Origin: a virus | Strand: one strand, 5' to 3' | DNA length: 64,000 nucleotides | IMG/VR virus record: IMGVR_UViG_3300045988_166693 | Span: 51,420-115,419 of that record | Shown: positions 34,597-64,000 of the stretch, piece after piece | How positions within the stretch are numbered: the stretch's first letter is position 1 | Layout: each line of letters starts with the position of its first letter | Made by a program: the position numbers and the translations under genes | The notes under the pieces: model-generated | Databases searched by the model: none | What the model was told of the DNA's origin: nothing | What the model saw: only the letters and a program-made list of their open reading frames with translations

Positions 34597-34674
34597 ACTG
34601 CTAAGTTTAAAAGTTCTGTCAATAGAACGCGGAAAGTGAATTTTGTCTCCCTTTTCAGGAAATATTTTTAGAGG

Positions 34675-35114: not shown

Positions 35115-35211
35115 CTATTTTGCTTTGTGATTTTCCTATAATGGAAAATATTAGCGTTTTATTTTCCGTTTTTGGAAAATATATCTATATTTGTGCCAAA
35201 TAACCAGACCT

Positions 35212-35466
35212 ATGAAGATTTACTTAGAAGAAAGATTAAAAGAGTCAGGTATAAGCAAGGATGAACTGGCAAAGAGACTGGGGATTTCCAATTCAAGTCT
35301 GACAAAGAAATTAAACGGTCCGTCACGGACTAACCTGCAATTCCTTGAAAGCGTGGCCGATGCGTTGGGGATATCTGTCTTTTCGCTGATTGAGGATGAA
35401 AAATGCGTGAAGGTAGGTACATTCCAGGCTGACGGAAACACTTACGAAATACGGAAAATAAACTGA
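35212..35466 (+). CDS. XRE-family HTH regulator
   Basis: Trimmed to ATG 35212. The HTH reads SGISKDELAKRLGISNSSLTKKLNG. Confidence 0.65.
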   Translation: MKIYLEERLKESGISKDELAKRLGISNSSLTKKLNGPSRTNLQFLESVADALGISVFSLIEDEKCVKVGTFQADGNTYEIRKIN

Positions 35467-35472
35467 TAGCCT

Positions 35473-49947: not shown

Positions 49948-50388
49948 TTATTTCCAGTATAACAAAGAATATCGGCGGACGCGCCGCGGCTGCATCATTT
50001 CCAGCTTTCTCAGCCGGTCGTCGTCAATCACCACATTCGGCACATCACACGAGTCGCAGGCCGGTTTCAGCACCCGGGCCATACCGAGCGCCACAGCCAT
50101 CATCAGCAAATGTTCCGCTGAATCCAGAGTAGCCCCTTCATACCGGCTCCCGTGTCCGCGAGCCAGAATCCAGGGCGCTCCTTCCGGACGCTGGCTGTAC
50201 CGCATGACTCGCGGAAGCCCCTTCACGGCCGAAAGTATCTGCATATACTTTTCTTTCAGACGGTCGGCGCTGAATGTATGTGCCTCTCCCCGCAGGCCGG
50301 GAACGGTAACGCTCTTTCCGCACCGTTCGTTCGCCCGATAGGTGGTGTACTGATAGATCTGATTGACGGTATCTGTGGTGACGTTCAT
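49948..50388 (-). CDS. hypothetical protein
   Basis: 146 aa and high GC. Confidence 0.5.
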   Translation of the reverse strand: MNVTTDTVNQIYQYTTYRANERCGKSVTVPGLRGEAHTFSADRLKEKYMQILSAVKGLPRVMRYSQRPEGAPWILARGHGSRYEGATLDSAEHLLMMAVALGMARVLKPACDSCDVPNVVIDDDRLRKLEMMQPRRVRRYSLLYWK

Positions 50389-50390
50389 GG

Positions 50391-50990
50391 CTATCTGATT
50401 ACGAGATTGTTTTCAATCACCAGATGAACATAGTTGATCTGTGCAAGACAGTCGGCCATCGGAGTGTGCCGGTCCGCTACCTTGGGCGGAAGGAGTCCTG
50501 CCTCAGTAAGCGCATCCATGTACGGCCGGACGTCGCGCACCTTCCGGAAGTTCCAGGGTAACACTTCTGCGTCAGACCCGTTGACGTGCTGGTTATACCA
50601 GGAATACATGGAGCGAAGCATAGCCACGTCGAAATCCAGCTGAAGGCACCATAACGTGAAGTCTCCGTTTTCGTCTGTTTCGGTCATGAAGTCCATCAGT
50701 TCTTCCATGAAATCTACCAGTAGTGTCTCCGCTCCTTCCACGAAGTTACGGCGGGCTGCATCCGACTGCATCATCCACCATTTCAGTGTAGATGCTTCGA
50801 TTCTGAACCCATAGCGTATGGAGTCTGCCAGATCTATTTTCCACACCTTGCGCCGTCCGGTTTCTCCGGTTTGCGGATCAAACTCAATGGCAGCCACCGA
50901 ACGGACCACGCTTCCAGGTGTCCTGCCCAGCGTTTCCGTATCTATCATTATATGCTTGAATTTATTTTCTTTCATTGCAATCGGATTCAT
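50391..50990 (-). CDS. DnaQ-like 3'-5' exonuclease
   Basis: Trimmed to ATG 50990. HIMIDTETLG is the Exo I DxE motif, and it has LKWWMMQSD. It resembles the Rv2179c-like exonuclease family. Confidence 0.6.
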   Translation of the reverse strand: MNPIAMKENKFKHIMIDTETLGRTPGSVVRSVAAIEFDPQTGETGRRKVWKIDLADSIRYGFRIEASTLKWWMMQSDAARRNFVEGAETLLVDFMEELMDFMTETDENGDFTLWCLQLDFDVAMLRSMYSWYNQHVNGSDAEVLPWNFRKVRDVRPYMDALTEAGLLPPKVADRHTPMADCLAQINYVHLVIENNLVIR

Positions 50991-51186
50991 TCTTTCTTTT
51001 GTATATAGGTTTTTCACGAAGGATATCCAGCGCCATGTCAGCCTTGCGCACCATGGACAGGGTTTCCGACGCATAAAGGTCGCCGGCGGCCATGCGTGCG
51101 AGCAGGATGTCCCGATATTCCGATCGGGAGATCACTTCCTTTATTTCCGGCTGTTCCCGTACTGATCGCTCCGTCCAATAGCTCAT
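50962..51186 (-). CDS. hypothetical protein
   Basis: 74 aa. Confidence 0.4.
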   Translation of the reverse strand: MSYWTERSVREQPEIKEVISRSEYRDILLARMAAGDLYASETLSMVRKADMALDILREKPIYKRKNESDCNERK

Positions 51187-51662
51187 AATTTCTTTTTCTT
51201 CGATTCAAACTCCTGCTGAAGGATGGTTTCGTATTCCTGGCCGAGTGAATATCTGCTGCACAGATAAACCCGTCCGCGATAGATAAACCATTGGGGCGTG
51301 CGACTCTGGTTGATCGGGATGCCGAATGCTACGCGGAAGTCATCCGACGTAACGTCGGGCAGGCGGATGATCTTTTGGGCTATCTCCTTCCCTTTCTCGT
51401 TGTTCATGTTGGGGATATACTCTCCCTTTCCGATATACTCGTAGGCAAACAGGTTGGGACAGCCCTTAAACTTCAGGCTTCCGATTCCCACTCCCGGATA
51501 CAGACACCCCGGGCGGTCAGTCCGCGCTTCTGCTCCCAGTTCGGCCGCCAGTTTGTCGGCAGCTTCGGCAGCTTTCTTTCCTTTCTCCAGAAACTCGCTG
51601 ATGCAGCGTCCGCGGTGCGTGTCTGTCAGCGAAACTTTGTAGTAATATCTTTTTTCTTCCAT
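51183..51662 (-). CDS. hypothetical protein
   Basis: Trimmed to ATG 51662 (MEEKRYYYK). Confidence 0.5.
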   Translation of the reverse strand: MEEKRYYYKVSLTDTHRGRCISEFLEKGKKAAEAADKLAAELGAEARTDRPGCLYPGVGIGSLKFKGCPNLFAYEYIGKGEYIPNMNNEKGKEIAQKIIRLPDVTSDDFRVAFGIPINQSRTPQWFIYRGRVYLCSRYSLGQEYETILQQEFESKKKKL

Positions 51663-51764
51663 TGTCAGAACAGATCTTTTACCAGGCAAACAATACCATA
51701 AATACAAAGGCTCACGAAAATCATCAGGAATATCAGGACGACACATCCCTGCATGGCCATGCGT

Positions 51765-52136
51765 TTAAACTCGTCCATAATCGGCTCCTTTCTCCAGCGT
51801 CATGCCGGGAATATAGTAAAGTCCGCACGAGTTCAGTTTCTCAAGCGCGGCCCGGATGCTTTTGTCCGACCGGTTGACGAAAGCTGCCATATATCCTTTG
51901 CGCCCGTTATAGTTCACCGGGAAAAACACCGGCATCACCTTATTCCATGGGATCGGGGAAAAGGGAATATTCCGCACCAGGCAGTCTTCTGAAATAACTT
52001 CCTCGGCGTTGAGCGGAAGTTTCTCAAATATCATGTGCGGATCGCCTTCTTCGGCGAAAGTCTTTAAAAGGGGATTTTGCAGTTTGATAAATAGAGCCTT
52101 GTTAAGCTCCCTGCGACGTTGATTTGTGTAGTACAT
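51765..52136 (-). CDS. hypothetical protein
   Basis: 123 aa. Confidence 0.5.
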   Translation of the reverse strand: MYYTNQRRRELNKALFIKLQNPLLKTFAEEGDPHMIFEKLPLNAEEVISEDCLVRNIPFSPIPWNKVMPVFFPVNYNGRKGYMAAFVNRSDKSIRAALEKLNSCGLYYIPGMTLEKGADYGRV

Positions 52137-53067: not shown

Positions 53068-53092
53068 GTGATTAAAGTTTAAAAATAAAGAA

Positions 53093-53120
53093 GGCCGGCA
53101 GAGATCACTCTCCGTCGGCC
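53093..53120 (-). terminator. intrinsic terminator
   Basis: In minus sense GGCCGACGGAG-AGTGAT-CTCTGCCGGCC is followed by UUCUUUAUUUUU. Confidence 0.55.
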
Positions 53121-53170
53121 TGTTCTAACTTAAAATTCCGCTTCACAGCGGCAGGAAATTATGATTATTA

Positions 53171-53410
53171 TCATTTCAGAAAACATAATCCGCAACGGTA
53201 TTCTTTCTTATCTTCCGGAACTTCATATTCAAGCAGGTATTCCGCAAAGAAATCTTTCGCTTCTTCTTCAGTTCCGTTTACATCTTCACAAGCGCTGTCG
53301 TCTAAAATTATTTTCCCATCACATACAAGACGGTAGTATCCGCTTATGGACTGTTCGCATTCAAAATTCTTTCCTGTTGCTTTTACTACATCCTCAAAAC
53401 TAGCTCCCAT
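53171..53410 (-). CDS. small acidic protein
   Basis: 79 aa. The fully antisense plus-strand ORF 53161..53403 was judged less protein-like. Confidence 0.45.
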   Translation of the reverse strand: MGASFEDVVKATGKNFECEQSISGYYRLVCDGKIILDDSACEDVNGTEEEAKDFFAEYLLEYEVPEDKKEYRCGLCFLK

Positions 53411-53520
53411 GACTCTAAACAGTTTTTCCCGTGTGCCTCACGTTTTATATTAAACATTTGTAGTCCGGCAGGGTATCACTCCCTACCAGACCAGAACTAA
53501 CTAAAAACTAACCTATGGAA

Positions 53521-53775
53521 TTATTTGATAGTGTCACATACGACAATTACTTCACCGGTTTCCGATTGCATGGCTACCTTATCGTCGTACATACCTAAAT
53601 CATATTTCTTAAACTCCTCTCCTACCATGATATCAAGAGTAAGAGAATCGCATGATATGTCTTTCACTTCTCCGTGAATTTCCTTTGCTTTGCATAATGC
53701 CTGGTAGTGATACTCTTCAAGTGTATCACTGTCTATTTCTCCATAAAAAGAGAATGGTTTAAATGTATTTCCCAT
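53521..53775 (-). CDS. small hypothetical protein
   Basis: 84 aa. Confidence 0.5.
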   Translation of the reverse strand: MGNTFKPFSFYGEIDSDTLEEYHYQALCKAKEIHGEVKDISCDSLTLDIMVGEEFKKYDLGMYDDKVAMQSETGEVIVVCDTIK

Positions 53776-53898
53776 AATTCTAAAAGTTTGACGTTGTAAA
53801 TATAGTTATTTTTCTCAAGTAGCCGAAGGAAAATCACTTTCCCTGCGGCTGGATTACTAACTTAAAAACTTCCGCTTCACAGCGTAACCAATAGAACT

Positions 53899-54207
53899 TT
53901 AATATTTATAATATAATGTTGTTTCATTAAAGCATCCATATTCATTATATGTACTGCTTTCAACCGAATAACATTCTGCATAAAACATATAGATATAAGT
54001 TGTAGCTCCTAATCTTTTTCGTTTTTTTGGTTCTTTGATAAGTATATATTTATTTTCCTTATCAATGTATGAAGAAGATATAATTCCGTTTGAATAGTTT
54101 AGGAACTCATTATAAATCTTATTAAATATGTTTTTTTGCTTTTCAGTTGGATTTTGGGGATTCCTTGATATAAGTTCTTTTGCTATTTCTTTACTTATTT
54201 TTTTCAT
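53899..54207 (-). CDS. small hypothetical protein
   Basis: 102 aa. The ATG sits in a GGAATTATG leader. Confidence 0.5.
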   Translation of the reverse strand: MKKISKEIAKELISRNPQNPTEKQKNIFNKIYNEFLNYSNGIISSSYIDKENKYILIKEPKKRKRLGATTYIYMFYAECYSVESSTYNEYGCFNETTLYYKY

Positions 54208-54274
54208 AATTCCTTAGTTTTAATAGTTACATAATAGTTCCGGATCAGGATGCAAACCTGAATCCGGAAGTAGG

Positions 54275-54736
54275 TTAGATGCGCATCATGTCAAGACATT
54301 GTTTCATAGGTATGAGTTCGTCACCAAAGCATTGTTGGAGGAAATTGTAAGACAGCTTAAAATTCCCTTTTACGCTTCTTATTTTAAATATCTTACCTTC
54401 ACACAATGACCTAAGATTTTCATCGTCATTAAGCATCCAGAATAGTTTTTCTAAGGAGTATTTTGGAAGCATCCCAGATATATGCAATTTACCTACAGGG
54501 TGAACTTCTTTAGGAACATCCATTACTATTACCTCAGCAGCAAAAATAGGAAAATCAGTTATGCAATCTAGTAAATCGTTTAGATTGTTATCGTCACCTT
54601 CATATAGGAAAGCATATTTTCTGAATCTACTCCATATCCCAGGTTTAAGAATACGTTTGGCTATTTCTACTGGTTCACCTTTCATGAATGTTTTACCATT
54701 AGCTACTTCCTCAATAATGTTTTTTTCTACTTTCAT
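54275..54736 (-). CDS. hypothetical protein
   Basis: 153 aa with the conserved leader cassette and an upstream hairpin. Confidence 0.55.
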   Translation of the reverse strand: MKVEKNIIEEVANGKTFMKGEPVEIAKRILKPGIWSRFRKYAFLYEGDDNNLNDLLDCITDFPIFAAEVIVMDVPKEVHPVGKLHISGMLPKYSLEKLFWMLNDDENLRSLCEGKIFKIRSVKGNFKLSYNFLQQCFGDELIPMKQCLDMMRI

Positions 54737-54803
54737 AATTCCAAAATTTTAGTTAGACAATGGTATCCAGCGTGCCGATAAAAGCACACCGGAAATGATT
54801 GGA

Positions 54804-55256
54804 TTATACAGTCTGTGCTGTATATTTAATCCATGCCGTAGGCATTGTAGAAAGTACATGCTGAAGATCAGATCTCGTACCGGTCAAAGACTCTTTCATG
54901 ATTGACTGTGCTTTCTCTGGGAAATTATCTATCATCTGAATCTGAAACCATGATAAAGGTTTCTTTTCTTTGATCATCTTCACATAATAAGGAATCACTT
55001 CGCGATGATTGGAAAGGAATGCCAGAATGTTTTGCGTTTGAGGGACCGGATATTTTTCAGGCTTTTTACGTGACATGCGGCGTGCGTTGGCCAGCAGCTC
55101 TTGCATATATCCCATTGGAACCGTACACTTGAAATTGCCTTCTTTTATGGTTTTTATTTCTACCGTTTTACCACACATTCTGTATTCTTCGCTACGGAGT
55201 ACCTGACCGTCATTGATAATACCTGCAATCTGTTTTTCTAATGATACTGTTCTCAT
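54804..55256 (-). CDS. hypothetical protein
   Basis: 150 aa with the conserved leader cassette. Confidence 0.55.
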   Translation of the reverse strand: MRTVSLEKQIAGIINDGQVLRSEEYRMCGKTVEIKTIKEGNFKCTVPMGYMQELLANARRMSRKKPEKYPVPQTQNILAFLSNHREVIPYYVKMIKEKKPLSWFQIQMIDNFPEKAQSIMKESLTGTRSDLQHVLSTMPTAWIKYTAQTV

Positions 55257-55325
55257 AATTCCATTGTTTTAAAAGTTAGACGATAGTACCGGAGGAAGAA
55301 TCAATCTCCCGTCCGGCCAAAGAAA

Positions 55326-55694
55326 CTATATACAACTCAAAACTTCTCTTTTGCAGATAGGAAGGAAATTATCTATTAAATATCTAGCACATTCTTTCCT
55401 CTCGCTTAGGTAGATACTGCACGATTTATTAATATAATCACTCCATATATCTTCCAATGTTACAGGTAAGATCTGCAATGCGTAATTATGTAAATCAATT
55501 TCAACTATCCTTTTATTTATTAAATCAATAGCTAAATTAATAGCACTTGTTTTACGAGCTACGTCTATGTCGTTTCTATGATTGTTATACCATTTTGTTC
55601 TGCACAATCTTACATAATTGTCGTATTTATGAGTCGTTTCTTCCAGCTTTTCTTTTTTAGCTTTCAGTTTACTAATTGTTTTTTCTATATTCAT
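55326..55694 (-). CDS. hypothetical protein
   Basis: 122 aa with the leader cassette (GGAGTTATG variant). Confidence 0.55.
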   Translation of the reverse strand: MNIEKTISKLKAKKEKLEETTHKYDNYVRLCRTKWYNNHRNDIDVARKTSAINLAIDLINKRIVEIDLHNYALQILPVTLEDIWSDYINKSCSIYLSERKECARYLIDNFLPICKREVLSCI

Positions 55695-55759
55695 AACTCC
55701 TTTTATTTTAGTTAGATAACGTACCTGGAAGGAGTATTACTCTTCCTTCCGGATATGAA

Positions 55760-55945
55760 TCAAAAGTTATCAGAAATCTTCTTTTCTACTCTCTTTTTGA
55801 ATTTTTCTATCATTCCTTCAATCTCATACCGTAGCTCTTCATTTTCCAGATAGGAGCAATATGTTCTGCTATTATCAATGCTCTGTAAAATGTTTGTTAC
55901 GGCATATTGATTTTTCTCTGATAAACTAAGTTTTTTTATTCCCAT
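55760..55945 (-). CDS. small hypothetical protein
   Basis: 61 aa with the conserved leader cassette. Confidence 0.5.
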   Translation of the reverse strand: MGIKKLSLSEKNQYAVTNILQSIDNSRTYCSYLENEELRYEIEGMIEKFKKRVEKKISDNF

Positions 55946-56012
55946 AATTCCAATGATTTTAAGTTAGACAATAGCAACCGGAGGGAGTATCACTCTCCCA
56001 CCGGATTGAGGT

Positions 56013-56654
56013 TTAGGCCCAAAGTTTCTTTGCTAATTCATAGTTCTTTTGAGCTTCATTGACTGCTTTTTTAGCATAGGTCAAAGAGTAAGCATGTTCG
56101 CGAGGATATTTCCCGGATTTAAGCCCCTGATGATATTCGGTGGCGACTTCCAGTTTGTGCTCATAATAGTCTATGCTTTCAGGCATTGAAAGATTTATCG
56201 TATCAGCTTTGTCTTCCCAATACTTAGCAACTCGTCTGTGTTCCTCTGCTTTATCCATCATTTTCACTGCTTTTCCAGTATTGTTCCAGGCATCTTCTAT
56301 CATTTTACGATGTCTTCTTTCACTATGATGACCAACTTTGATTGGCTCTCCAAGTGAAAGGAAATCACGGTCTTTGTTGGATTTATCAAAGTATTCCTGG
56401 CTTTTGATGTCTGCCGCATTAGCCCATTCAAGTCGTCTTTCAGCTCTTTTCTTAGCCCATTCCTGCACGTTGAATCCATCTGCACGAACTATAGAATAGT
56501 AATAACATCCGTCACGCTCAAATATCAGATTGAATACGATACTTTCATTTTCTTTCCCATATTTGGTAGTTACAAGGATAGTTTCACCTTTTTCATGCTT
56601 TTCATCACACTTTGCAAGAAATACATTTGGACACAATTTGTAGTAAACATTCAT
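56013..56654 (-). CDS. DUF3560-like protein
   Basis: 213 aa. LGEPIKVGHHSERRHRKMIE matches my recollection of the DUF3560 signature. It has the leader cassette. Confidence 0.5.
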   Translation of the reverse strand: MNVYYKLCPNVFLAKCDEKHEKGETILVTTKYGKENESIVFNLIFERDGCYYYSIVRADGFNVQEWAKKRAERRLEWANAADIKSQEYFDKSNKDRDFLSLGEPIKVGHHSERRHRKMIEDAWNNTGKAVKMMDKAEEHRRVAKYWEDKADTINLSMPESIDYYEHKLEVATEYHQGLKSGKYPREHAYSLTYAKKAVNEAQKNYELAKKLWA

Positions 56655-56720
56655 AATTCAAGAATTTAAAAGTTAGACAATAAGTAAGGCAGTCGGAATC
56701 ACTTCCGGCTGCCCTCTACA

Positions 56721-57848
56721 TTACAGAGAGAAAGCTGCTCTCAGCTCCAGTTCTCGTTTCTTTGAGAAAACCCAACCTGCACCGCATTTCAGCTTACCGT
56801 TGAATCGTCCGCCAAGCTCTTTCAGCTTTTCCACATATTCGCGGGTATTACCGATGATGGCCACAGCCTTTTCGCTATAATCTACAAGCTGCAGATCACC
56901 TGCATTTCCTACGGTTTTGAGGGTTGTTTTTACAGGTTTTTCTTCGGGCTCCTGATAAAGATTTACATCTCTCAGATAACCGCGAACGCAACTGGAAGCA
57001 CATGTGTACCGGTCATTCCTTACAAACTCAGAGTAGGTTTTCGGAATGAACTCACTGTTTTCGTTCACACCGATAGCTTCGGGATGTTTGGCATAGAATT
57101 TTTCTTTTGCTTCCTCCCATACTTTATCAGAATAGCTTCGCTCCAAATCCGGCGTATATCCGATTCCGCCATATAAAGCAGTAAACTCGTCACCGATGTT
57201 TTCTTCGATGTCCTGGTACCCGTTAAAAGTGGTGTCTGCAAACATGGAACAGATTTTACCGACCATTTTTTCGGTCGGACCGTCCGTCCATCTTACGTTG
57301 TATCTGTTTGAACCATTCTTTTTGGAATAGAACTTTACACCCGGAAAAGCACGTTTCAGAAGCACAAGCATGTTCTGTTTGGCTGTCTTGTCGTCATACC
57401 CGCCTTTGCTTTCTGTCAGTATCGAGCCATACTCTTTTCGGAGCTGCTCGGTACGATTTTGGCTGGCTATACGTTTGTTTTTCTCCAGACGCTCGTTCCA
57501 TGCCTGCTGTACTTCGCACTGGTGAACCAGTTTGGCTATTTCCTGCTCGGGCATACGGTAGTCGGGCTCTTTGTCGTCCCAATAGTAACCAATCCCGAAC
57601 TTCTTTGATAACGGCTGGTCGTCCTGGCCTACTCTCCAATATGCAAAACGGTGCCATCCTCCGATTTCGGCCATTTGCTGCCGTCCGTGAATGTCAGGAA
57701 CAGAAGTCACGATAAACTTACCGCTTTCGCTTCCTCCATAACCTAAGAATCCATAAACGCGCTGGCCTACTTCGAGAACCTTTTTACCGATTTCTACCAT
57801 CTGAAAACCATTTGACCAATCCATTCTGTACATTTTTCCTGATTCCAT
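56721..57848 (-). CDS. large early protein with a plasmid/ICE-type C-terminal module
   Basis: 375 aa. The C-terminal EKAVAIIGNTREYVEKLKELGGRFNGKLKCGAGWVFSKKRE resembles a short module seen on polyvalent and antirestriction-associated proteins. It has the leader cassette. Confidence 0.55.
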   Translation of the reverse strand: MESGKMYRMDWSNGFQMVEIGKKVLEVGQRVYGFLGYGGSESGKFIVTSVPDIHGRQQMAEIGGWHRFAYWRVGQDDQPLSKKFGIGYYWDDKEPDYRMPEQEIAKLVHQCEVQQAWNERLEKNKRIASQNRTEQLRKEYGSILTESKGGYDDKTAKQNMLVLLKRAFPGVKFYSKKNGSNRYNVRWTDGPTEKMVGKICSMFADTTFNGYQDIEENIGDEFTALYGGIGYTPDLERSYSDKVWEEAKEKFYAKHPEAIGVNENSEFIPKTYSEFVRNDRYTCASSCVRGYLRDVNLYQEPEEKPVKTTLKTVGNAGDLQLVDYSEKAVAIIGNTREYVEKLKELGGRFNGKLKCGAGWVFSKKRELELRAAFSL

Positions 57849-57911
57849 AATTCTATAAATTTTAAGTTAGACAATAGACCCCGGCAGATTCTCAAAAACC
57901 TGCCGGAATGT

Positions 57912-58454
57912 TTAAGCTACACAGAAGTAGAAATCACCCTGATGGCGGTATCCGCTGGTAAGCAATGTCCTGGAGTATGCTTCGTAGTCGAAATACTGAC
58001 CAAACTCAGTTTGAAGTTCTTCAGGCCATTTCATTTCCGCCATATAGGTGGCAAACGCTTCCTCAGAATCAAATTGCCCTGCGTATTTATCTCTGAACTT
58101 TTCTACGAGCTCTTCACCGTCTTTGATATAGGAATAATCCACAAAGTACATATCAAGAAACGTAAAGAATGCTTCTGTCTCTGTGTCATCCATATCTTTT
58201 GCACACTGAATGATACCAAATATTCGCGGGTCGATATAGCTTTCGTTTATCATCCCGTCCGGTATGTTATTATAGTCCTGGTACATAAACTCTGGCTCTT
58301 CCTCGTCGCTATGCAATTCCTTGCAGGCTTCCATAAACTTATCTTTCGATTCATAGTCGGCCAATTCCATCCATGCGCTAGCCAGCGAACCTTCATTATA
58401 TTTCTTATATGTACCTACATATACGCTTGCTCTGAGTAATTTTGATTTTTCCAT
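57912..58454 (-). CDS. ardA: ArdA-type antirestriction protein
   Basis: ASVYVGTYKKYNEGSLASAWMEL...EEEPEFMYQDYNNIP...FRDKYAGQFDSEEAFATYMAE...YFDYEAYSRTLL follows the ArdA pattern and is strongly acidic. Confidence 0.75.
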   Translation of the reverse strand: MEKSKLLRASVYVGTYKKYNEGSLASAWMELADYESKDKFMEACKELHSDEEEPEFMYQDYNNIPDGMINESYIDPRIFGIIQCAKDMDDTETEAFFTFLDMYFVDYSYIKDGEELVEKFRDKYAGQFDSEEAFATYMAEMKWPEELQTEFGQYFDYEAYSRTLLTSGYRHQGDFYFCVA

Positions 58455-58529
58455 AATTCCTTTGTTTTTAGTTAGACATAAAAGAAGCCGGAAGCAATGA
58501 TAAATCGCTTTCGGCTTATGTTTTTACTT

Positions 58530-58826
58530 TCATCTTTGTATTTTTACAAATGCAATGTTACTATTACTACAATAGTCATTTACAAGATAACCTTTTTCTG
58601 TAAATGCAGCCAGCACTTTTCTTATTACGGAAACAGTTGCTTTACCAGCTTTATCACTCTTATAATATGACAAATTACCATATTCACCCATACCGCAACC
58701 AGAATAATAATATTCAAAACAGAATGACTGATCAGAAGAATTATTTAAACCATCTAAAATATATTTAGCCAATTTGTCTTCAGCTGATTCTTTTGCATTT
58801 GTTTTAGGAATTTCAATTGTAAGCAT
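58530..58826 (-). CDS. small hypothetical protein
   Basis: 98 aa with the leader cassette. Confidence 0.5.
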   Translation of the reverse strand: MLTIEIPKTNAKESAEDKLAKYILDGLNNSSDQSFCFEYYYSGCGMGEYGNLSYYKSDKAGKATVSVIRKVLAAFTEKGYLVNDYCSNSNIAFVKIQR

Positions 58827-58893
58827 AATTCTTTTGTTTTTAGTTAGACATAAAAGAAGCCGGAAGCAGTTTCAGGCTGCTTTCGGCATAGAC

Positions 58894-59415
58894 TTAACCT
58901 TTTGACATTTGAACTAATGCTGCATCCCAAATAATTTTAGCTTCTTCATCGCTTAGATGTGAATGTGATTTATGCCATTTACAGAAACCGTAGCCATAAT
59001 ACATATAGTCCATGGCATTTTCTAATTCGGCTCGATGTGATGCTATAAAGTTTTGCCTTTCTATATGCTTTTTATACGCTTCATGGCTCAGTTTTTGGGC
59101 CTCACTTTTAAAAGTTAGTCCATTCGTTTTTCTGATTTCGGATGCAGGAACGTATGTATAATATTCTGCGATTCCTTCTATAAGATCAAAATCTCTGAAA
59201 TATTTCAAGCCCAATGCTTGTGACAAAACCTGTAATGATTTAGCGTCAACAAATACTAGATCACATTTATTTAAATCTTGATTGTCATATACTTTCATAC
59301 TTCCTGAATGATTTATTATATGATACAATGTCATGCAATGCTTTCGTAACACATATTTATCCTCAGTCATCAAACCTGCAGATTCTATTCTTTTGTTTAA
59401 TGTTTCTTGTTTCAT
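58894..59415 (-). CDS. hypothetical protein
   Basis: 173 aa with the leader cassette. Confidence 0.55.
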   Translation of the reverse strand: MKQETLNKRIESAGLMTEDKYVLRKHCMTLYHIINHSGSMKVYDNQDLNKCDLVFVDAKSLQVLSQALGLKYFRDFDLIEGIAEYYTYVPASEIRKTNGLTFKSEAQKLSHEAYKKHIERQNFIASHRAELENAMDYMYYGYGFCKWHKSHSHLSDEEAKIIWDAALVQMSKG

Positions 59416-59482
59416 AATTCCTTTGTTTTAAGTTAGACATAAAGCAGGCGGCCACCGGATAATCAGCAGCTGCCTGTATGAA

Positions 59483-59731
59483 TCACTCAAGCTTGAATAG
59501 AAAAAGATTATCTTTCCCGTCTAGATCAAAGGTGTATTCCGGTTTTTCTTTAATATGTGAAAACCAATCATCTTTTCTTTGATAGATGTATAAGTACATA
59601 CCCTCAAGATTTACATTTTCTTCCGTTCCGAAATACTCTTTTGTGTTCTCGTCTTGAACAAAGCCATAACAACCGCTATCCATTCCTTCACTAGACAAGT
59701 GATTCAGCAGATTAAAAGTTTCTTGTGTCAT
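59483..59731 (-). CDS. small hypothetical protein
   Basis: 82 aa with the leader cassette. Confidence 0.5.
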   Translation of the reverse strand: MTQETFNLLNHLSSEGMDSGCYGFVQDENTKEYFGTEENVNLEGMYLYIYQRKDDWFSHIKEKPEYTFDLDGKDNLFLFKLE

Positions 59732-59793
59732 AATTCCTATAATTTAGTTATACGATAGCATCCGGCACCGCTGCAAGGCGGAACCGGGAAAAA

Positions 59794-60024
59794 TCATGCG
59801 GCTTTGGCGGTTTCTATCAAGTTTCGGATTTCACTCAGTTTGTGTACATGACATCCGTTGTATGGCTCTTTGCAGTTATAAAGTCTGTTATACACATACA
59901 GAGTTACATATCTCTCATTTATTGGCAAGTCTATAAGCTCATTAATATCTACTTCTTCATAATACTGATTAGATGGAGCCAGAAACCATACACAATTACC
60001 TGATTCTTTTACTATTTTTCTCAT
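59794..60024 (-). CDS. small hypothetical protein
   Basis: 76 aa with the leader cassette. Confidence 0.5.
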   Translation of the reverse strand: MRKIVKESGNCVWFLAPSNQYYEEVDINELIDLPINERYVTLYVYNRLYNCKEPYNGCHVHKLSEIRNLIETAKAA

Positions 60025-60086
60025 AATTCCTATAGTTTTAGTTAGACAATGCCAGCCGTTTCGGAATAAACCGGAACGGCCGTAAA

Positions 60087-60650
60087 TCAGGAAGCTTTAA
60101 TCTGGTTTATAGGGTTGTTAGCCTTTCCATAAATAGCTTCACCATTAGAGAATATACCCAAACATAGAAGTCTTTCAGAGTATTTTTCATATACAGATTC
60201 AAGTTCTTCAGTTAGTTCAGATACGGCTTTTTCTACATTTTTTACAAGGTTCTTAGCTTGCATCTTACAGAATCCGGGATTTTCACTATATTCATAGCTT
60301 GACTCAAGCTGTTCAAGAGCTTCGGATTCATCATAGCATTCAAGGTCGTATTCTGTGCCGTCTATCTCTATATCCCAATCCAGATTTGCATCTGAAAAAT
60401 AACCGGACCTGATGATAGCTCTTACAGTAACATCAACCCAAAATTTACCGATACTCGCTTTTTTAGTTTTCTCTGAAAACACGCATCCAGGATAGCTCCT
60501 TTCTCCGTCATTTTTTCTCATAGAATCCCATCCAAGTTCTTTTAGTTCATACGATACATTATCTTTTGTATCCTGATAAGAAAAATCATCTTCGCATGAT
60601 ACCATAAAGATATTGCTAGCATTTGCATTGTAAAAATTAGGTGCACTCAT
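60087..60650 (-). CDS. acidic hypothetical protein
   Basis: Trimmed to ATG 60650 (MSAPNFY), which sits in the GGAATTATG leader. The track start runs through the cassette. Confidence 0.55.
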   Translation of the reverse strand: MSAPNFYNANASNIFMVSCEDDFSYQDTKDNVSYELKELGWDSMRKNDGERSYPGCVFSEKTKKASIGKFWVDVTVRAIIRSGYFSDANLDWDIEIDGTEYDLECYDESEALEQLESSYEYSENPGFCKMQAKNLVKNVEKAVSELTEELESVYEKYSERLLCLGIFSNGEAIYGKANNPINQIKAS

Positions 60651-60714
60651 AATTCCTATAGTTTTTAAGTTAGACAATGTTACCGCCATCCGTATAACAG
60701 GATAGCGGTATCAT

Positions 60715-61056
60715 TCACAGAGCAAGCTTTAACTGTACATATTGCGGTACATGTTTTTGCTCATAGGTAACAGGCTCCGGTTGTTTGTATTCCATATCTG
60801 CAATAGCTTTCATAAACTCTTTTCTGGAGATCTCATTCCCTCCCTGGCAATACTCTGTATGCGAAGCATTATAATGCCGCATGTAGTATTTACCAGACCG
60901 GTACGTGTAACCGTTATAAGTATATTCCTTGTATCTCCATAAACTTCGCCACCAGTCCATGCCCCATGAACGAGACCATGCTTCTGCAGCTTTTTCTGAG
61001 TTATCATACGTTTTTCCGTAGCGTTGAGCCATGCTTTTAAATTCCTGTAATGTCAT
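60715..61056 (-). CDS. hypothetical protein
   Basis: Trimmed to ATG 61056 (MTLQEFK) in the GGAATTATG leader. Confidence 0.55.
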   Translation of the reverse strand: MTLQEFKSMAQRYGKTYDNSEKAAEAWSRSWGMDWWRSLWRYKEYTYNGYTYRSGKYYMRHYNASHTEYCQGGNEISRKEFMKAIADMEYKQPEPVTYEQKHVPQYVQLKLAL

Positions 61057-61119
61057 AATTCCTATAGTTTTTAAGTTAGTGAAGCTGGCCAGGAAGTGAT
61101 AAAACCTCCCAGCCATAGT

Positions 61120-61485
61120 TCATGCTACATTAGCGTTTATTGAATCTTTAATCCGGATTTCTGTCATAGTATTGAGATCAAAGATGGCCAGCTGGTCATT
61201 TTCTATGCCTAACTGAATAGCTTTTTCACGGTCATTCACAACCAGCGTAGCGTCATAATAATATAAGCCTGACTGATCATCGTACCATCCGCCGATAGCA
61301 TTTGCTTTTCCGGCTTTTATGGCTTCCAACACAGAAGCTATACCAGACTCACCAAACGAGTTTTGCGTGTCTCGTATGGCAACGGCATAGCCAGATGTAA
61401 CCGGCTGCAAAGTTTCTGCATTGATAGTAAATCCGGCAGCATTCATAGCTGCAATTGCTGCAATAAGTTTAATACTTGCGTTCAT
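61120..61485 (-). CDS. hypothetical protein
   Basis: 121 aa with the leader cassette. Confidence 0.55.
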   Translation of the reverse strand: MNASIKLIAAIAAMNAAGFTINAETLQPVTSGYAVAIRDTQNSFGESGIASVLEAIKAGKANAIGGWYDDQSGLYYYDATLVVNDREKAIQLGIENDQLAIFDLNTMTEIRIKDSINANVA

Positions 61486-61553
61486 AATTCCTGTAGTTTT
61501 AAGTTAGTAAATCAAGTTCATGTATCCCCGATTAAAGAGATACACGATACCAG

Positions 61554-61646
61554 TCAGTCTTTGTAGAAAAACTTTTCGCCTGGTTTTCTGCCTATTCTGT
61601 AACCCAGATAGGCAAGACTGATCATCATTAATATTTCCATATTCAT
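61554..61646 (-). CDS. candidate 30-aa membrane peptide
   Basis: MNMEILMMISLAYLGYRIGRKPGEKFFYKD, preceded by the 9-bp hairpin CAGGCTGCA...TGCAGCCTG. It is below the track cutoff. Confidence 0.25.
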   Translation of the reverse strand: MNMEILMMISLAYLGYRIGRKPGEKFFYKD

Positions 61647-61701
61647 ACAGGATTAAAAGTTCGCAGGCTGCATACCGGCAAAGGTGTGCAGCCTGATAGC
61701 A

Positions 61702-61989
61702 TCATTCTGAGATGTATTCATCCCAAGATTTTTCAAGCATACCGTTATTTTTTGCCCATTTCCCATAACGAGATAGAAAATCTTCAAAATCATACTTTTC
61801 TGAACACTTCAAGTTTTTCATATAGGACTTATTCCCATAGAACTCTGATAACTCTTTTTCCCATTCATTATAGAATGAACATTCATGACCATTGGCTAAT
61901 ATTCTACCAGCATAGTCTTTTAATTCTTCATTTACTTTGCCGAATGTATTAATGTAACCACAAGCATAGAAAAACAGTAATTCTTTCAT
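61702..61989 (-). CDS. small hypothetical protein
   Basis: 95 aa with a leader cassette variant. Confidence 0.5.
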   Translation of the reverse strand: MKELLFFYACGYINTFGKVNEELKDYAGRILANGHECSFYNEWEKELSEFYGNKSYMKNLKCSEKYDFEDFLSRYGKWAKNNGMLEKSWDEYISE

Positions 61990-62652
61990 AATTCAAAAAA
62001 TTTTATAGTTAAACAATAAATAAGAAGTGCCATGCGCCCGAAAGCGCATAGCACTACATAGGTAGGGGTTTTCCGTACCACCCCCGAAGCTGGTTATCGG
62101 TACACCCGTGCATACCCGCCTATATGCACCATGATACACTATTTGCATAGCGTTCACGGATACACCTTTCGCATAGACGACCTTTGCAGGCGCACCGCCA
62201 TACAGACACACGTGTCCGCATGGTACGTTGATTCCATAGGCCCGGATAACTCCCAGCCCGTTCCATACATACGCTAAAACAGTATGGATCTTTTCCGGTT
62301 AACTACTCCGGCATACACCCAAGATTGAACAGGGCATAGCACACCTGTACATGAATCCATACGGACACGGCGCACCCTGACTTACCGTTCAACACGTTGC
62401 AGGGCACACCGCACCCATACGGGTACAGTTATGCCATAGAATTATGAATTATGATTTTCGCGGCCCTGGATACCATCGGCCTCTGGGACCGGATGACTGC
62501 AGGCGCACACGTGCGCCCCTATATGCAACAGTAGCACACGTGCCGCCGTATTACATAGGTAGGTATCTTTTTTGCCGGCCGTATGAAATAGAATATATTT
62601 TTGTGGGTGTCCGGGAGTCGGACCCGGACGAATACCATACACCCGCCGCGGC
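61990..62652. other. GC-rich noncoding island with over-represented SCATAS words
   Basis: About 660 nt with no convincing ORF. There are about 16 same-orientation CATAG/CATAC words. TACATAGGTAGG is repeated at 62056 and 62553. Confidence 0.5.
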
Positions 62653-63225
62653 TTATGCCGCTTTGAAAAACTCTTCAGCAAGCTGCAAAAGAATGTTTTC
62701 GGGCACGTCTTTATATTTGTCCCGGAGTTCTTTTGCCTTTTCCGCTATTTGTTTAGCACGTTTTTCCGCTTTATTTGCGGCTTTTTCCTTTGCTTTTTCC
62801 GCTTTGTTATCCTCTTTATTAAATAAATCCGCGTACATTTGCTCAATTCTTTCCGTTTCTTTCTTCAGCTTTAGAGATGACTCTAAAGAATAGAAAAAAT
62901 CACGAATAGTGAAACGTATTGGGATATATTCATAGAAGGCGTTCCCTATTTTTACCTGTTTGTATTCGCAAAACTCAATATTATTTTTATCTGTAATTTT
63001 GCGAAGCTTGCAAAAGACGTTTCTTTCCGAATAGTCATACAGGCCGCAAAGGTCCGAAAGCTCAAGCTTTTTGGTTATCCCGTACATGTTTAATAGCTCC
63101 ATAATTGCCGGGTCTTTCCGGTTTTTATTGATAGCGTTCAAAACTGCAAACGGGCTTAACATTTCGTTTGTCAAAACATTGATAGCTTCCTTTTTTACAT
63201 TTGCTTTAGATACATTTGTTTTCAT
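62653..63225 (-). CDS. hypothetical protein with Lys/Ala/Glu-rich C-terminal coiled coil
   Basis: 190 aa with the leader cassette. It is the promoter-proximal gene of the leftward early array. Confidence 0.55.
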   Translation of the reverse strand: MKTNVSKANVKKEAINVLTNEMLSPFAVLNAINKNRKDPAIMELLNMYGITKKLELSDLCGLYDYSERNVFCKLRKITDKNNIEFCEYKQVKIGNAFYEYIPIRFTIRDFFYSLESSLKLKKETERIEQMYADLFNKEDNKAEKAKEKAANKAEKRAKQIAEKAKELRDKYKDVPENILLQLAEEFFKAA

Positions 63226-63531
63226 AATTCCATAATTTTAAGTTAGTAATATAGTAACGGGTATCGACTATGCACGACCCGGGCAAACATAGTTCACCCG
63301 TTAGGCTACCTTTCGGCTCCTTTCCCGTTATCAATATATCACTACTTCATACGGATATTGTGTTACAGACTAACCGCGCCGCGTGTACTTTGTTCCGGTT
63401 GCTTTCGTTGTGGTTGGCAAACTATGCCAACCGGGAAAAATTCTAAACTATAGAAGTGAACAGGACCACCAACAAAAACGCTATACACGTTTATACGGTA
63501 TTTTTTCAAAGAACGTATTTTTTACCAAAAT

Positions 63532-63562
63532 TTTGTAGGAACAGGAAAAACACGTATCTTTG
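63532..63562 (+). promoter_or_regulatory. canonical Bacteroidota promoter (TTTG, 19 nt, TATCTTTG)
   Basis: TTTG at 63532..63535, an exact 19-nt spacer, and TATCTTTG at 63555..63562. Confidence 0.55.
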
Positions 63563-63568
63563 AACTTG

Positions 63569-63637
63569 CTACAGTTGGAAAGATATGTATCTTTCTTTTT
63601 CCGGGCCGGCGTTCCTGTAACGTCGGCCTTTTTTTTT
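63569..63637 (+). ncRNA. candidate 70-nt small RNA
   Basis: It lies between the promoter above and the terminator GGCCGGCG-TTCCTGTAA-CGTCGGCC plus T9 (63604..63637). It has an internal hairpin GAAAGATA-TG-TATCTTTC and no ORF. Confidence 0.35.
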
Positions 63638-63834
63638 AGGTAAGATCTATTTGCCGGGCTTTGGGAAGCCCCGGCGGCTTCTGTGATCTTTATTTCTTGA
63701 TCACGTTACAAAGGTAGTACTATTTTCTGTATGTGCAAACGTATGGTACTATTTTCTGTATTTATTTAACTGTTATTTACAATATATACTATTTTTGAAA
63801 GGTTTATTTACACTATTGCCTATTTTATCGTCTC

Positions 63835-64000
63835 ACCAGCGGGCACACCAGCGCACACCAGCGGGCACACCAGCGCACACCAGCGGGCACCAGCGCACAC
63901 ACCAGCGGGCACACCAGCGGGCACCAGCGCACACACCAGCGGGCACACCAGCGGGCACACCAGCGCACACCAGCGGGCACCAGCGCACACACCAGCGGGC
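63835..64000. repeat. tandem array of alternating 10/12-nt units, continuing past the window edge
   Basis: CAGCGGGCAC(AC) and CAGCGCACAC(AC) alternate about 15 times. The unit lengths are not multiples of 3. Confidence 0.8.

Follow-up and report, generated by a model that had tools for sequence, protein, structure and literature searches.

About 19 small genes stand in a 10-kb row in the genome of a tailed phage of about 115 kb from the human gut, and each has its own hairpin and the same leader of about 27 bases. The explanation we favour, tentatively and at a little under an even chance, is a regulated early operon of promoterless cassettes, punctuated by hairpins and with an optimised leader that also works as a patch for recombination. 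Positions refer to the window, that is, the whole 64,000-nt stretch of DNA that was analysed (Table 1).

The genome carries tape measure, amidase, holin-like, and tail-fibre-like genes together with ParA and Rep-like genes, and it is possibly a phage-plasmid. These phage genes, along with promoters of the Bacteroidota sigma-A type that are the phage's own, bear out the first-pass annotation's assignment to a Bacteroidota phage. The array is a hyperplastic accessory region of this phage, and several of its genes have domains of counter-defence type. Domains flanked by cassettes include ArdA, DUF3560, LPD29, DUF4942, and DUF4121, a gene content that calls for early expression. An SSB gene lies near the array, and ArdA with SSB makes a set like that of leading regions.

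Each cassette is about 62-75 bp long and keeps the same order: a variable GC-rich hairpin, 2-6 nt, (A/T)T(G)TCTAACT-W1-4-AAA, 4-6 nt, and GGAATT-ATG. The cassette had been listed before 17 start codons (54207 to 63225) and is present at all 17; an eighteenth, degenerate copy precedes a 28-aa ORF (61554..61640). In the consensus first given, the conserved core is corrected to TCTAACT, after which comes a W-run whose length varies. Matches to TGTCTAACTNAAAA with at most two mismatches number 22 in the window, against 2.8 ± 1.6 in shuffled sequence (0 of 100 shuffles reach 22), and 15 of the 22 belong to the minus-strand array. Elsewhere, leader-like sequences lie within 5' UTRs or between cistrons, none of them at promoter positions. 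Anchored on the ATG, A-12 and A-13 are found in 100% and A-3 in 97% of 117 unique copies. The first-pass annotation knew of no earlier description; Rfam gave nothing, and the only papers brought up by a literature string search were unrelated. It had also raised the possibility of generic Bacteroidota intergenic sequence, a reading that is not supported: a fixed 27-nt leader with TCTAACT and GAATT is not general in Bacteroidales genes. A boxA-like reading was likewise not supported.

Folding confirmed a hairpin at a fixed position before each cassette. Upstream hairpins in the array have dG values of -12 to -22 kcal/mol, the exception being a weak one before the first gene (-9.6), and the two originally cited as examples lie where claimed (60681-60710 and 60053-60082). 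Over the 117 unique copies, mean hairpin dG is -17.4, vs -8.9 ± 3.5 in shuffles. Stems of 9-14 bp and loops of 4-9 nt vary in sequence, and the MFE folds have a median of 13 pairs and a 6-nt loop. The statement that the hairpins lack U tracts was mostly right: 3-7 of the 10 nt after the stem are U, 3 of the 17 pass a terminator-like scan, and tails are fairly U-rich after the hairpins at 62026-62055 and 58485-58517. As had been said, they are not classic U-tract terminators, which are present elsewhere in the same genome.

Eleven matches to TTTG-N17-23-TAHHTTTG occur in the window, where 1.5 were expected. One of them serves the array strand, and over 11 kb this promoter (63709-63739) is the gene strand's only canonical sigma-A promoter; the ACAGAAAATAGTAC repeats beside it are putative operators. 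Exact TAHHTTTG is found in none of the 20 array intergenic regions and the -7 box is absent from all cassettes, in agreement with the earlier view that the motif has no TAnnTTTG box and is not the host sigma-A promoter. We infer polycistronic transcription of the array only from this lack of sigma-A boxes. A promoter role for the motif itself is no longer the reading that the sequence favours, because a canonical sigma-A promoter with putative flanking operators lies upstream of the array, because the 3' half of the leader matches known Bacteroidia translation determinants, and because the DNA examined (about 84 kb of the roughly 115-kb genome) yielded neither a phage RNA polymerase nor a sigma factor.

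Under the operon explanation, the array would be transcribed mainly as one early operon from this host-type promoter, and transcription would pass a long structured leader before the array. Each gene would be a promoterless, self-sufficient cassette, starting with a standardised unstructured A/U-rich leader, TCTAACT-W-AAAA-N4-6-GGAATT-AUG, and ending with its own GC-rich hairpin that lacks a proper U tract. By its anatomy the leader would be a translation module, a function suggested by work in F. johnsoniae, where A-3, A-12, and A-13 were shown experimentally to be translation-initiation determinants (PMC6847099; PMC7366714). TIR accessibility is only slightly higher in the array than in other phage genes (0.63 vs 0.57). 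The invariance of TCTAACT and GAATT exceeds the known adenine preferences, an observation that counts against a translation module. To judge from its structure and linkage, the hairpin is most likely transcript punctuation, acting as a weak attenuator and/or a 3' stabiliser, and it would insulate the next leader from sequence upstream. Twenty strong serial hairpins would extinguish distal expression of a single operon, so either each would have to terminate very weakly or antitermination would have to operate.

A search for the cassette in related phages, which the first-pass annotation had proposed, gave 159 copies, 117 of them unique, in 22 arrays (the window and 21 related IMG/VR loci). Across these arrays 42 gene families are flanked by cassettes, and gene order is colinear but mosaic. 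Comparison of the arrays shows that whole genes are gained, lost, and replaced between related phages at leader patches, and that the breakpoints fall within the conserved leader. Of the homology-block ends, 74% are at most 40 nt from a leader, vs 14% expected at random. Crossover intervals are scattered along the whole leader and include at least two non-overlapping zones. The hairpin stays linked to the gene before it and the spacer to the gene after it, and in relatives the hairpin of cassette 57849..57911 precedes another gene family. Two neighbouring copies (58455.. and 58827..) do agree with one mismatch over about 45 nt, which in the 58827.. copy are its 3' part; only the outer stem is the same, and the inner stem differs along with the loop. 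Recent cassette-mediated recombination, proposed from this pair, is plausible; the two variants of the hairpin are both old alleles that relatives carry too. Every cassette has the same leader of about 27 nt, and these leaders act as short homology patches; an incoming gene would bring its own translation start and be expressed at once, and repeated exchange would keep the leaders uniform by concerted evolution.

Table 1. Features of the array and its surroundings (positions in the window).
Position	Strand	Feature	Sequence or hairpin	Gene downstream
63717..63759	-	Two exact 14-nt direct repeats (63717-63730, 63746-63759) that overlap or flank the promoter	ACAGAAAATAGTAC	
63709..63739	-	Canonical Bacteroidota sigma-A promoter pointing into the array	TTTG-N19-TACCTTTG	
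63226..63708	-	Leader of ~480 nt, promoter to first array gene		
63226-63252	-	Conserved leader, weak hairpin upstream	ATTACTAACTTAAAATTATGGAATT	First array gene
53899..63225	-	Array of 17 small genes and a 28-aa ORF, each a self-contained cassette		
61990..62652	-	Highly structured non-coding spacer, 663 nt, z = -5.3; ends in hairpin, U-rich tail, and leader	62026-62055; TTGTTTAACTATAAAATTTTTTGAATT	61702-61989
61641..61701	-	Degenerate cassette	61663-61696; GAACTTTTAATCCTGTATGAAT	61554-61640 (28-aa ORF)
61486..61553	-	Class I cassette	hairpin; TTTACTAACTTAAAACTACAGGAATT	61120-61485
61057..61119	-	Class I cassette		60715-61056
60651..60714	-	Class I cassette	60681-60710	60087-60650
60025..60086	-	Class I cassette	60053-60082	59794-60024
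59732..59793	-	Class I cassette, variant	TCGTATAACTAAATT	59483-59731
59416..59482	-	Class I cassette		58894-59415
58827..58893	-	Class I cassette	58857-58889	58530-58826
58455..58529	-	Class I cassette	58485-58517	57912-58454 (ArdA)
57849..57911	-	Class I cassette		56721-57848 (LPD29)
56655..56720	-	Class I cassette	56686-56715	56013-56654 (DUF3560)
55946..56012	-	Class I cassette		55760-55945
55695..55759	-	Class I cassette	55720-55757	55326-55694
55257..55325	-	Class I cassette		54804-55256
54737..54803	-	Class I cassette		54275-54736
54208..54274	-	Class I cassette, variant	TTATGTAACTATTAAAA	53899-54207
53822..53885	+	Class II cassette	hairpin; ACTAACTTAAAAA; small hairpin CCGCTTCACAGCG	
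53463..53522	+	Inverted variant without ATG; adjoins stop codon of gene 53521-53775	hairpin; GAACTAACTAAAAACTAACCTATGGAATTAT	
53093..53163	+	Class II cassette	53092-53121; TGTTCTAACTTAAAA; TTCCGCTTCACAGCGG; CAGGAAATTATG	

Three extra copies of the cassette lie on the plus strand (53093-53163, 53463-53522, and 53822-53885). The last of these lies antisense to gene 53899-54207 at its 3' end, and the first is antisense to gene 53171-53410. Read on the minus strand, the hairpin of the first copy is followed by TTCTTTATTTTT and is terminator-like. The class II copies (n = 3) keep the hairpin, the box, and GGAATTAT, and they are conserved in relatives. They face no gene. A translation module fits them less well than a signal that acts autonomously at the level of DNA or RNA, for instance an antisense promoter.

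These copies bear on a second explanation, which we regard as possible but doubtful: the hairpin would terminate or attenuate transcription, and the TCTAACT-AAAA box would be a non-sigma-A promoter, used by the host RNA polymerase together with a sigma factor or activator that is alternative or comes from the phage. Each gene would then be transcribed as a separate unit, the copies on the plus strand would act as antisense promoters, and the mRNAs might be very short-leader or leaderless. The autonomy of hairpin and box, conserved when inverted without a gene, speaks for this, as do an architecture and shuffling like those of promoter-stem-loop (PeSL) cassettes, the AT-rich run after the box, as in a melting region, and the U-rich tails of several hairpins, which would need a restart. 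CTAACTT is also common to the box and three of the phage's own -7 boxes (CCTAACTTTG), and about 19% of B. thetaiotaomicron primary TSSs are without a sigma-A motif. However, the sequence does not match the nearly invariant sigma-A positions T-6 and G-5, nor T-7 in the TAACTAAAA variant; the phage's other operons do not have the box, and counter-defence genes need an unmodified host enzyme for expression at entry; the failure to find a sigma factor or polymerase in the 84 kb weighs on the same side. A -7-like placement would moreover give leaders of 6-10 nt, rare in Bacteroides (3.7% under 10 nt), and put the ATG-anchored A-12 and A-13 outside the mRNA.

We consider it unlikely that an endoribonuclease of host or phage recognises the hairpin and the single-stranded UGUCUAACU, cutting the polycistronic transcript into single-gene mRNAs, each protected by a 3' hairpin and with a leader of about 20 nt, as at the RNase III sites of the T7 early operon. 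The distance from hairpin to box is fixed at 2-6 nt, the hairpin travels with the gene before it, and predicted folds leave the invariant TCTAACT box single-stranded. With TAAC 15-18 nt from the ATG, the leader would come close to the modal 23-nt Bacteroides 5' UTR. RNase III requires a stem of about 20 bp, however, and those found here are too short; no nuclease candidate was identified, and the hairpins fold nearly equally on both strands (-17.4 vs -16.4 kcal/mol, p = 0.05), without a clear RNA-strand signature.

Capture of genes by a dedicated recombinase that targets the hairpin and the GTCTAAC core on folded DNA, as in integrons, seems improbable. The core fits RYYYAAC and equals the integron inverse-core consensus and, as in integron arrays (attC, Pc), one-orientation units of a promoterless ORF plus hairpin, highly variable in gene content, follow a common promoter. 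Unlike in integrons, there is no R''/R' inverted core pair, integrase, or attI, and every cassette brings a standard translation leader. No complementary GTTRRRY flanks the hairpin, the reverse motif being confined to the three class II copies, and the proteins scanned included no tyrosine or HUH recombinase, only recombinases of IS elements. Crossovers spread over separate leader zones and not at one nucleotide point to homologous, not site-specific, recombination. An attC-like reading is not supported.

N4 promoters have conserved 5-7-bp stems and 3-nt loops, and Frpo is a hairpin of about 300 nt containing -35/-10 boxes. A hairpin-dependent promoter on extruded or single-stranded DNA, either as for the virion RNAP of N4 or of the Frpo/ssi type found in plasmid leading regions, is highly improbable here and not supported: although the hairpins stand upstream of early or anti-restriction genes, are near-perfect palindromes that can form on either strand, and accompany a gene content like that of conjugative leading regions, the element is a tailed phage, no giant virion RNA polymerase, relaxase, or T4SS was seen in the DNA examined, and the first-pass comparison with N4 early promoters fails on hairpin size, loop, and sequence conservation.

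The operon that we favour resembles the early operon of T7 and T3 in its one host-type promoter region, its multi-kb length, and its anti-restriction functions first; intercistronic hairpins there punctuate the RNA and can stabilise upstream messages, as is predicted here. Unlike in T7/T3, the stems are far too short for RNase III, a conserved single-stranded box follows each hairpin, there are about 20 sites instead of 5, and processing is hypothetical. The leader shares A-3, A-12/-13, and an A/U-rich unstructured sequence with no functional Shine-Dalgarno spacing with the 'Kozak-like' initiation regions of Bacteroidia (Baez et al. 2019, PMC6847099), and differs from them in that its 27 nt are fixed in sequence and include GAATT and an invariant TCTAACT box.

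In its sequence architecture, the array is a variant of the PeSL cassettes described in phages of the T4 type (Arbiol et al. 2010, PMC2839356; Comeau et al. 2014, PMC4122927). Its signal is not the host consensus, whereas PeSLs have sigma-70 -35/-10 boxes and an AT-rich UP region; its cassettes are shorter than the roughly 100 bp of PeSLs; its hairpins are without poly-G/poly-C tracts and have weak U tails; and its lineage and host are those of a Bacteroidota phage with plasmid-like genes. The likeness drawn by the first-pass annotation nevertheless holds for both architecture and evolutionary behaviour, with the relatives' breakpoints in the leader. Specifically, both are intergenic composites of a stem-loop after the upstream stop, a conserved expression signal, a ribosome-binding region, and an ATG, both are concentrated in a hyperplastic region whose early genes are small and for the most part orphans, and both provide homology patches for whole-gene insertion, deletion, and replacement among related phages.

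We read the minus strand of window positions 53500-64000 and tabulated the sequence upstream of every start codon. The single cassette layout that the first-pass annotation had claimed for the 17 genes of the array precedes each of them: the stop codon of the previous gene is followed by a GC-rich hairpin, 2-6 nt, and a leader consisting of (A/T)T(G/A/C)TCTAACT, a short A/T run, AAA(A), 4-6 variable nt, GGAATT and the ATG. The intergenic regions of the array are 62-75 nt long with two exceptions, namely a 663-nt spacer after the first array gene and a seeming 100-nt gap that contains a 28-aa ORF (61554-61640) and, before it, a degenerate cassette. With up to two mismatches allowed, TGTCTAACTNAAAA has 22 copies in the window and 2.8 +/- 1.6 in shuffled sequence. 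The array hairpins fold at -12 to -22 kcal/mol, that of the first gene, which has no gene upstream, at -9.6. Two example hairpins had been placed correctly, and the 45-nt near-identity reported for the copies at 58455 and 58827 is accurate.

Scanning IMG/VR with the leader pattern gave 15 loci in a first, exact pass and more in a second, several of them on contigs of ~100-123 kb. The resulting catalogue covers the window and 21 related loci (22 loci) and holds 159 cassettes, 117 of them unique, collected with a single 24-28-nt pattern. Across this family the hairpins average -17.4 kcal/mol, and their shuffled counterparts -8.9 +/- 3.5. In minimum free energy (MFE) folds the median hairpin has 13 pairs and a loop of 6 nt; stems are 9-14 bp, and the array hairpins span 26-40 nt. 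In sequence the hairpins form 22 unrelated clusters that all fold at the same place, which is evidence of selection on structure. RNAalifold found no structure in a MAFFT alignment of 29 related hairpins, owing to register shifts; we worked with per-sequence folds and substitution counts within hairpin clusters. Substitutions per position are ~2.6 times denser at unpaired positions (100 substitutions) than at paired ones. Pairing was kept in 30 of the changes in pairs and broken in 37; specifically, one-sided changes kept it in 24 cases and broke it in 34, while two-sided changes kept it in 6 and broke it in 3. Because the two strands fold almost equally well (-17.4 versus -16.4 kcal/mol, p = 0.05), strand asymmetry cannot tell an RNA function from a DNA function, and the balance of G-U against A-C is likewise too weak for such an assignment. 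The 10 nt after the array stems contain 3-7 U by hand count, 3 of the 17 hairpins passed a terminator-like scan, and textbook terminators with a hairpin and U tract occur elsewhere in the genome (7467-7492, 36942-36974 and 63602-63630); on these grounds the array hairpins would be weak terminators at best.

The leader can be divided into two halves. Counting from the ATG, A occupies positions -12 and -13 in all 117 unique copies, -14 in 79%, -3 in 97% and -4 in 99%, and position -6 is mostly G (69%) rather than A; G-5 and T-2/T-1 were imposed by the search pattern that collected the copies. A-12 and A-13 are also present in four window copies that lie outside the search pattern, which we checked by hand. 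Ribosome profiling and reporter mutagenesis in F. johnsoniae found that A-3, and especially A-12 and A-13, stimulate initiation; Bacteroidia ribosomes ignore Shine-Dalgarno sequences (PMC6847099; PMC7366714). The leader combines A-3 and A-12/A-13 with low structure (unpaired probability 0.63) and no dependence on a Shine-Dalgarno sequence. Since its adenines match the F. johnsoniae determinants, the 3' half is, judged by its sequence, an optimised Bacteroidia translation initiation region. Known translation determinants do not explain the TCTAACT box, which is invariant and floats 15-18 nt from the ATG while the length of the W-run compensates.

Elsewhere in the window, strong Shine-Dalgarno-like sequences (AAGGAGG, GTGGAGGA) lie upstream of 9 of the 99 gene starts, against a background of 3.5%, and such a minority is odd in a host whose ribosomes are thought to be Shine-Dalgarno-blind.

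Our data indicate that the element is a human-gut tailed phage, ~115 kb in size, that carries plasmid-like maintenance genes. Within the window there are also genes for a 1537-aa tail-fibre-like protein, a holin-like protein, SSB and an exonuclease, and an Amidase_3 endolysin and a 1914-aa tape-measure protein are found just past its left end. Exactly the same proteins are present on contigs of 115,366, 115,387 and 115,391 bp from three human-gut assemblies, with different start points. ArdA, DUF3560, LPD29, ParA and Rep suggested the leading region of a conjugative plasmid or ICE, a reading excluded by the genes for tape measure, amidase, holin and tail fibre. No close relative turned up among GenBank phages or PLSDB plasmids by megablast, tblastn of a 585-aa protein and a PDB sequence search of two large proteins gave no match, and no tRNAs were found. 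The Bacteroidota consensus promoter TTTG-N17-23-TAHHTTTG is in excess (11 copies against 1.5 expected), and the host phylum is therefore taken to be Bacteroidota; a sigma-70-type scan gave no excess (47 against 46.6). Matches to Prevotella are single chromosomal ones outside the cassette family, and the host assignment stops at the phylum. Taken together, the ParA, Rep-like and repressor-like genes, the repeats and the palindrome suggest a phage-plasmid lifestyle.

Features of the window by position and strand
Feature	Position	Strand	Remarks
Reverse transcriptase	3220-4692	minus	diversity-generating retroelement
Template repeat	about 4470-4620	minus	diversity-generating retroelement
Small accessory ORF	4696-5049	minus	diversity-generating retroelement
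Variable repeat	about 5110-5260	minus	3' end of 472-aa gene 5127-6545
Genes with Shine-Dalgarno-like sequences	8934-10097, 18256-18591, 19274-19795, 23211-24443		examples
ParA	32153-33046		plasmid-like maintenance module (32153-36936)
AT-rich repeats	about 33480-33530		TATATATTCAGCTA type
Palindrome	33596-33637		17-bp arms
HTH repressor-like gene	35212-35466
Rep-like protein	35473-36936		DnaA_N and weak Rep3_N matches
Inverted (class II) cassettes	53093-53163, 53463-53522, 53822-53885	plus	three, at distal array end
Structured non-coding spacer	61990-62652	minus	663 nt, between first and second array genes; MFE -268 kcal/mol, z = -5.3
Sigma-A promoter	63709-63739	minus	TTTG-N19-TACCTTTG; ~480 nt upstream of first array gene
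Direct repeats ACAGAAAATAGTAC	63717-63759	minus	two exact 14-nt copies, 29 nt apart

Several further features of this genome were observed. A diversity-generating retroelement lies on the minus strand at 3220-6545, and its template and variable repeats differ only at template adenines. Insertion sequences occupy 22619-24443 and 40371-41927 and comprise an IS607-like serine recombinase with a TnpB-like 410-aa protein and a 518-aa transposase; a relative (locus L271) carries a different DDE transposase at another site (17072-18604 of that locus). Islands of 51-59% G+C at 1-2000, 15001-17000, 30001-31000 and 50001-52000 stand out from the remaining 31-46% G+C, which suggests a mosaic origin of modules. 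A GC-rich tandem array of 12- and 22-nt units (CACCAGCGGGCA / CACCAGCGCA), with ~15 copies at 63834-64000, runs ~60 nt past the end of the window (about 8990-9130 of L268). It belongs to 1 kb of non-coding DNA that separates an HU/DUF5053 gene block from the array promoter, and its sequence may be that of iterons or of a packaging or origin feature.

Bacteroidota sigma-A promoters have the form -33 TTTG / -7 TAHHTTTG, in which T-12, A-11, T-8, T-7, T-6 and G-5 are nearly invariant and 4-5 nt separate the -7 element from the start site (PMC6847099). The cassette box reads TAAC-T(T/A)(A/T)A and lacks T-6 and G-5, and no exact TAHHTTTG occurs in the 20 intergenic regions of the array, which rules out the box as a sigma-A promoter. 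The only sigma-A promoter that serves the array strand lies upstream of the whole array. Its -33/-7 spacer and upstream flank are overlapped by the ACAGAAAATAGTAC repeats, which have no further copies in the window and look like repressor operators. Neither an RNA polymerase nor a sigma factor was detected in the window and 20 kb of flanking DNA (~84 kb of the ~115-kb genome). The box is essentially absent from the same ~84 kb outside the array, apart from leader-like copies in two settings: within the holin-like gene's 5' UTR, behind a canonical promoter (2113-2126), and at an internal cistron of a relative's late operon. On balance we favour the reading that the array is one regulated early operon of promoterless cassettes. 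Such an operon, inferred from the sequence, would be transcribed polycistronically; the hairpins would have a role within it, and the TCTAACT box may have a specific partner. If this is right, the cassettes are a natural, portable part for polycistronic expression in Bacteroidales, a hairpin insulator plus leader. The weaknesses of this reading are real: the hairpins follow one another in a series of twenty, U-rich tails are present on some, and there are the inverted copies. If the cassettes are promoters instead, they define a new promoter class in this phylum.

In the relative's structural and lysis late region, a leader-like TATCTAACCTAAAAAACAGGAATTATG without a hairpin precedes an internal cistron (L271 7748-7774). 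The segment is homologous to the region upstream of window gene 7860-8273, where the window has no such copy. The leader can thus occur outside the array.

The 663-nt spacer contains a repeated element, CCTACCTATGTA, and a plus-strand sigma-A-like promoter at 62571-62603, and relatives have conserved its 3' end. The spacer could yield a non-coding RNA or act in antitermination or regulation.

Nothing argues as strongly for a signal at the DNA or RNA level, beyond translation, as the inverted copies. Two of them consist of the class I leader, as found before array genes, whose spacer is interrupted by an inserted 14-nt hairpin, CCGCTTCACAGCGG; taking out CCGCTTCACAGCGG restores class I spacing. 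They face no conserved ORF: an 80-aa plus-strand ORF (53161-53403) is judged spurious, being broken in one relative while the protein on the opposite strand is conserved. In every case they run antisense to a real gene, at its 3' end, and many relatives have kept them. Read on the gene strand, one has the form of a canonical terminator (a hairpin followed by TTCTTTATTTTT). Their occurrence without a gene makes the hairpin and box an autonomous unit. They may be, for example, antisense promoters or bidirectional transcript-end signals.

We consider it unlikely that the hairpin and TCTAACT box form the recognition element of a dedicated machinery, either a sigma-A-independent promoter class or a recombinase-driven capture of counter-defence genes. 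As a promoter, the pair may be an initiation signal of Bacteroidota phages, possibly hairpin-assisted and active in both orientations. As a device for gene capture, the pair may be integron-like in its working and different in its chemistry.

The genes downstream of the cassettes fall into 42 families, most without a Pfam or PHROG match. Pfam recognises ArdA, DUF3560, LPD29, DUF4942, DUF7688, BRCT and DUF4121, a set known from the 'polyvalent protein' and counter-defence literature; the remaining families have no Pfam match. Gene order among relatives is colinear but mosaic. For example, ArdA is followed either by an LPD29 gene or by an unrelated 270-aa gene. Hairpins of any one of the 22 clusters always stand behind one particular upstream gene end, the W-run and spacer go with the downstream gene, and a hairpin may have one gene after it in one phage and another elsewhere. 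Comparison of the window array with its relatives placed 74% of the ends of homology blocks no more than 40 nt from the centre of a leader; random positions give 14%. The crossover intervals vary from case to case, some lying only in the TCTAAC zone and others only in the GAATTATG zone, which indicates homologous exchange over a short conserved patch and argues against cleavage at one site. The leader is a precise sequence handle that could serve to mine counter-defence and host-takeover genes of gut Bacteroidota phages, which have few cultured representatives; most of the 42 families are of unknown function and are neighbours of ArdA-type genes.

Among known systems, the N4-type hairpin promoter named for comparison in the first-pass annotation fits poorly. 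N4 promoters have a conserved 5-7-bp stem, a 3-nt loop and specific bases, and are used by a giant virion-packaged RNA polymerase. The stems here vary, in 22 sequence clusters, around a median of 13 pairs, the median loop being 6 nt. The largest window protein (1537 aa) is tail-fibre-like; the DNA examined covers ~84 kb of the genome. A generic Bacteroidota leader, an outcome that the first-pass annotation had named as a refutation, is rejected as a general feature: ORF starts in 650 kb of Bacteroidales DNA show no enrichment of TCTAAC ahead of them (2 of 160 cases have it at 13-18 nt, which ranks 56th among 90 permutations). A strict 21-nt pattern gave 13 single chromosomal matches in genome contigs, at least 11 of which are assigned to Bacteroidota; we estimate that these matches exceed a crude chance expectation yet are extremely rare. 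Most open a substantial ORF, and their positions are 5' UTRs or between cistrons, a hint that a role at the level of mRNA would at least be compatible with the leader. The 14-mer alone has mostly chance matches in IMG/VR.

In integron attC sites, inverted R'' (RYYYAAC) and R' (GTTRRRY) cores pair at the base of the hairpin, an integrase gene and attI lie next to the cassettes, and crossover occurs at one fixed position; here only a RYYYAAC-like box is present, 3' of the hairpin and without a GTTAGAC partner, the scanned proteins include no tyrosine recombinase, and crossover zones are scattered rather than fixed. The box resembles a boxA (NusB/NusE) site only superficially, matching neither AGAGTTCTTTGAAAGATT, the Bacteroidales rrn boxA found in ~75 of 109 rrn leaders recovered from metagenomes, nor the gamma-proteobacterial consensus GYTCTTTAANA. 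Pairing with 16S rRNA as an epsilon-like enhancer is rejected at a best run of 8 pairs, shuffled motifs reaching 8-11; the best duplex, which is not significant, joins the invariant UCUAACUU to AAGUUAGG near position 452 of Bacteroidales 16S rRNA (loci L148-L267), in helix 17, a region homologous to the one once proposed as the target of the T7 epsilon enhancer in E. coli. Frpo/ssi promoters, which belong to conjugative elements and rebuild -35/-10 boxes in a long (~300 nt) imperfect hairpin, are excluded by the 26-40-nt spans in a tailed phage, and T7-type RNase III sites, with their duplex of ~20 bp or more and internal loop, by stems of 9-14 bp.

The comparison with the promoter-stem-loop (PeSL) cassettes of T4-type phages holds for architecture, clustering and breakpoints and fails for the conserved signal. 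As in PeSLs, an intergenic composite places a stem-loop right after the upstream stop, then a conserved signal, a ribosome-binding site and ATG; the copies cluster in a hyperplastic region of small orphan early genes (42 families here); and the breakpoints of indels and replacements between relatives fall in the cassettes, the same gene-shuffling behaviour described for T4-type phages (PMC2839356, PMC4122927). The PeSL signal, in contrast, is a host primary-sigma consensus promoter, which the cassette box is not. For PeSLs, reporter fusions and inverse PCR have been used to assay promoter and terminator activity and the formation of mini-circles (PMC2839356). Rfam yielded no match, whether thresholds were gathering or permissive, and all papers that contain the motif string are unrelated, in agreement with the annotation's remark that it knew of no description. 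Modular shuffling of the PeSL kind seems to have an origin here separate from that in T4-type phages, the host being one with quite different promoter and translation signals. The cassettes are a real feature of the whole family: a PeSL-like system of modular genes in a Bacteroidota phage of the gut, whose signals either suit the unusual expression machinery of the host or depart from it.
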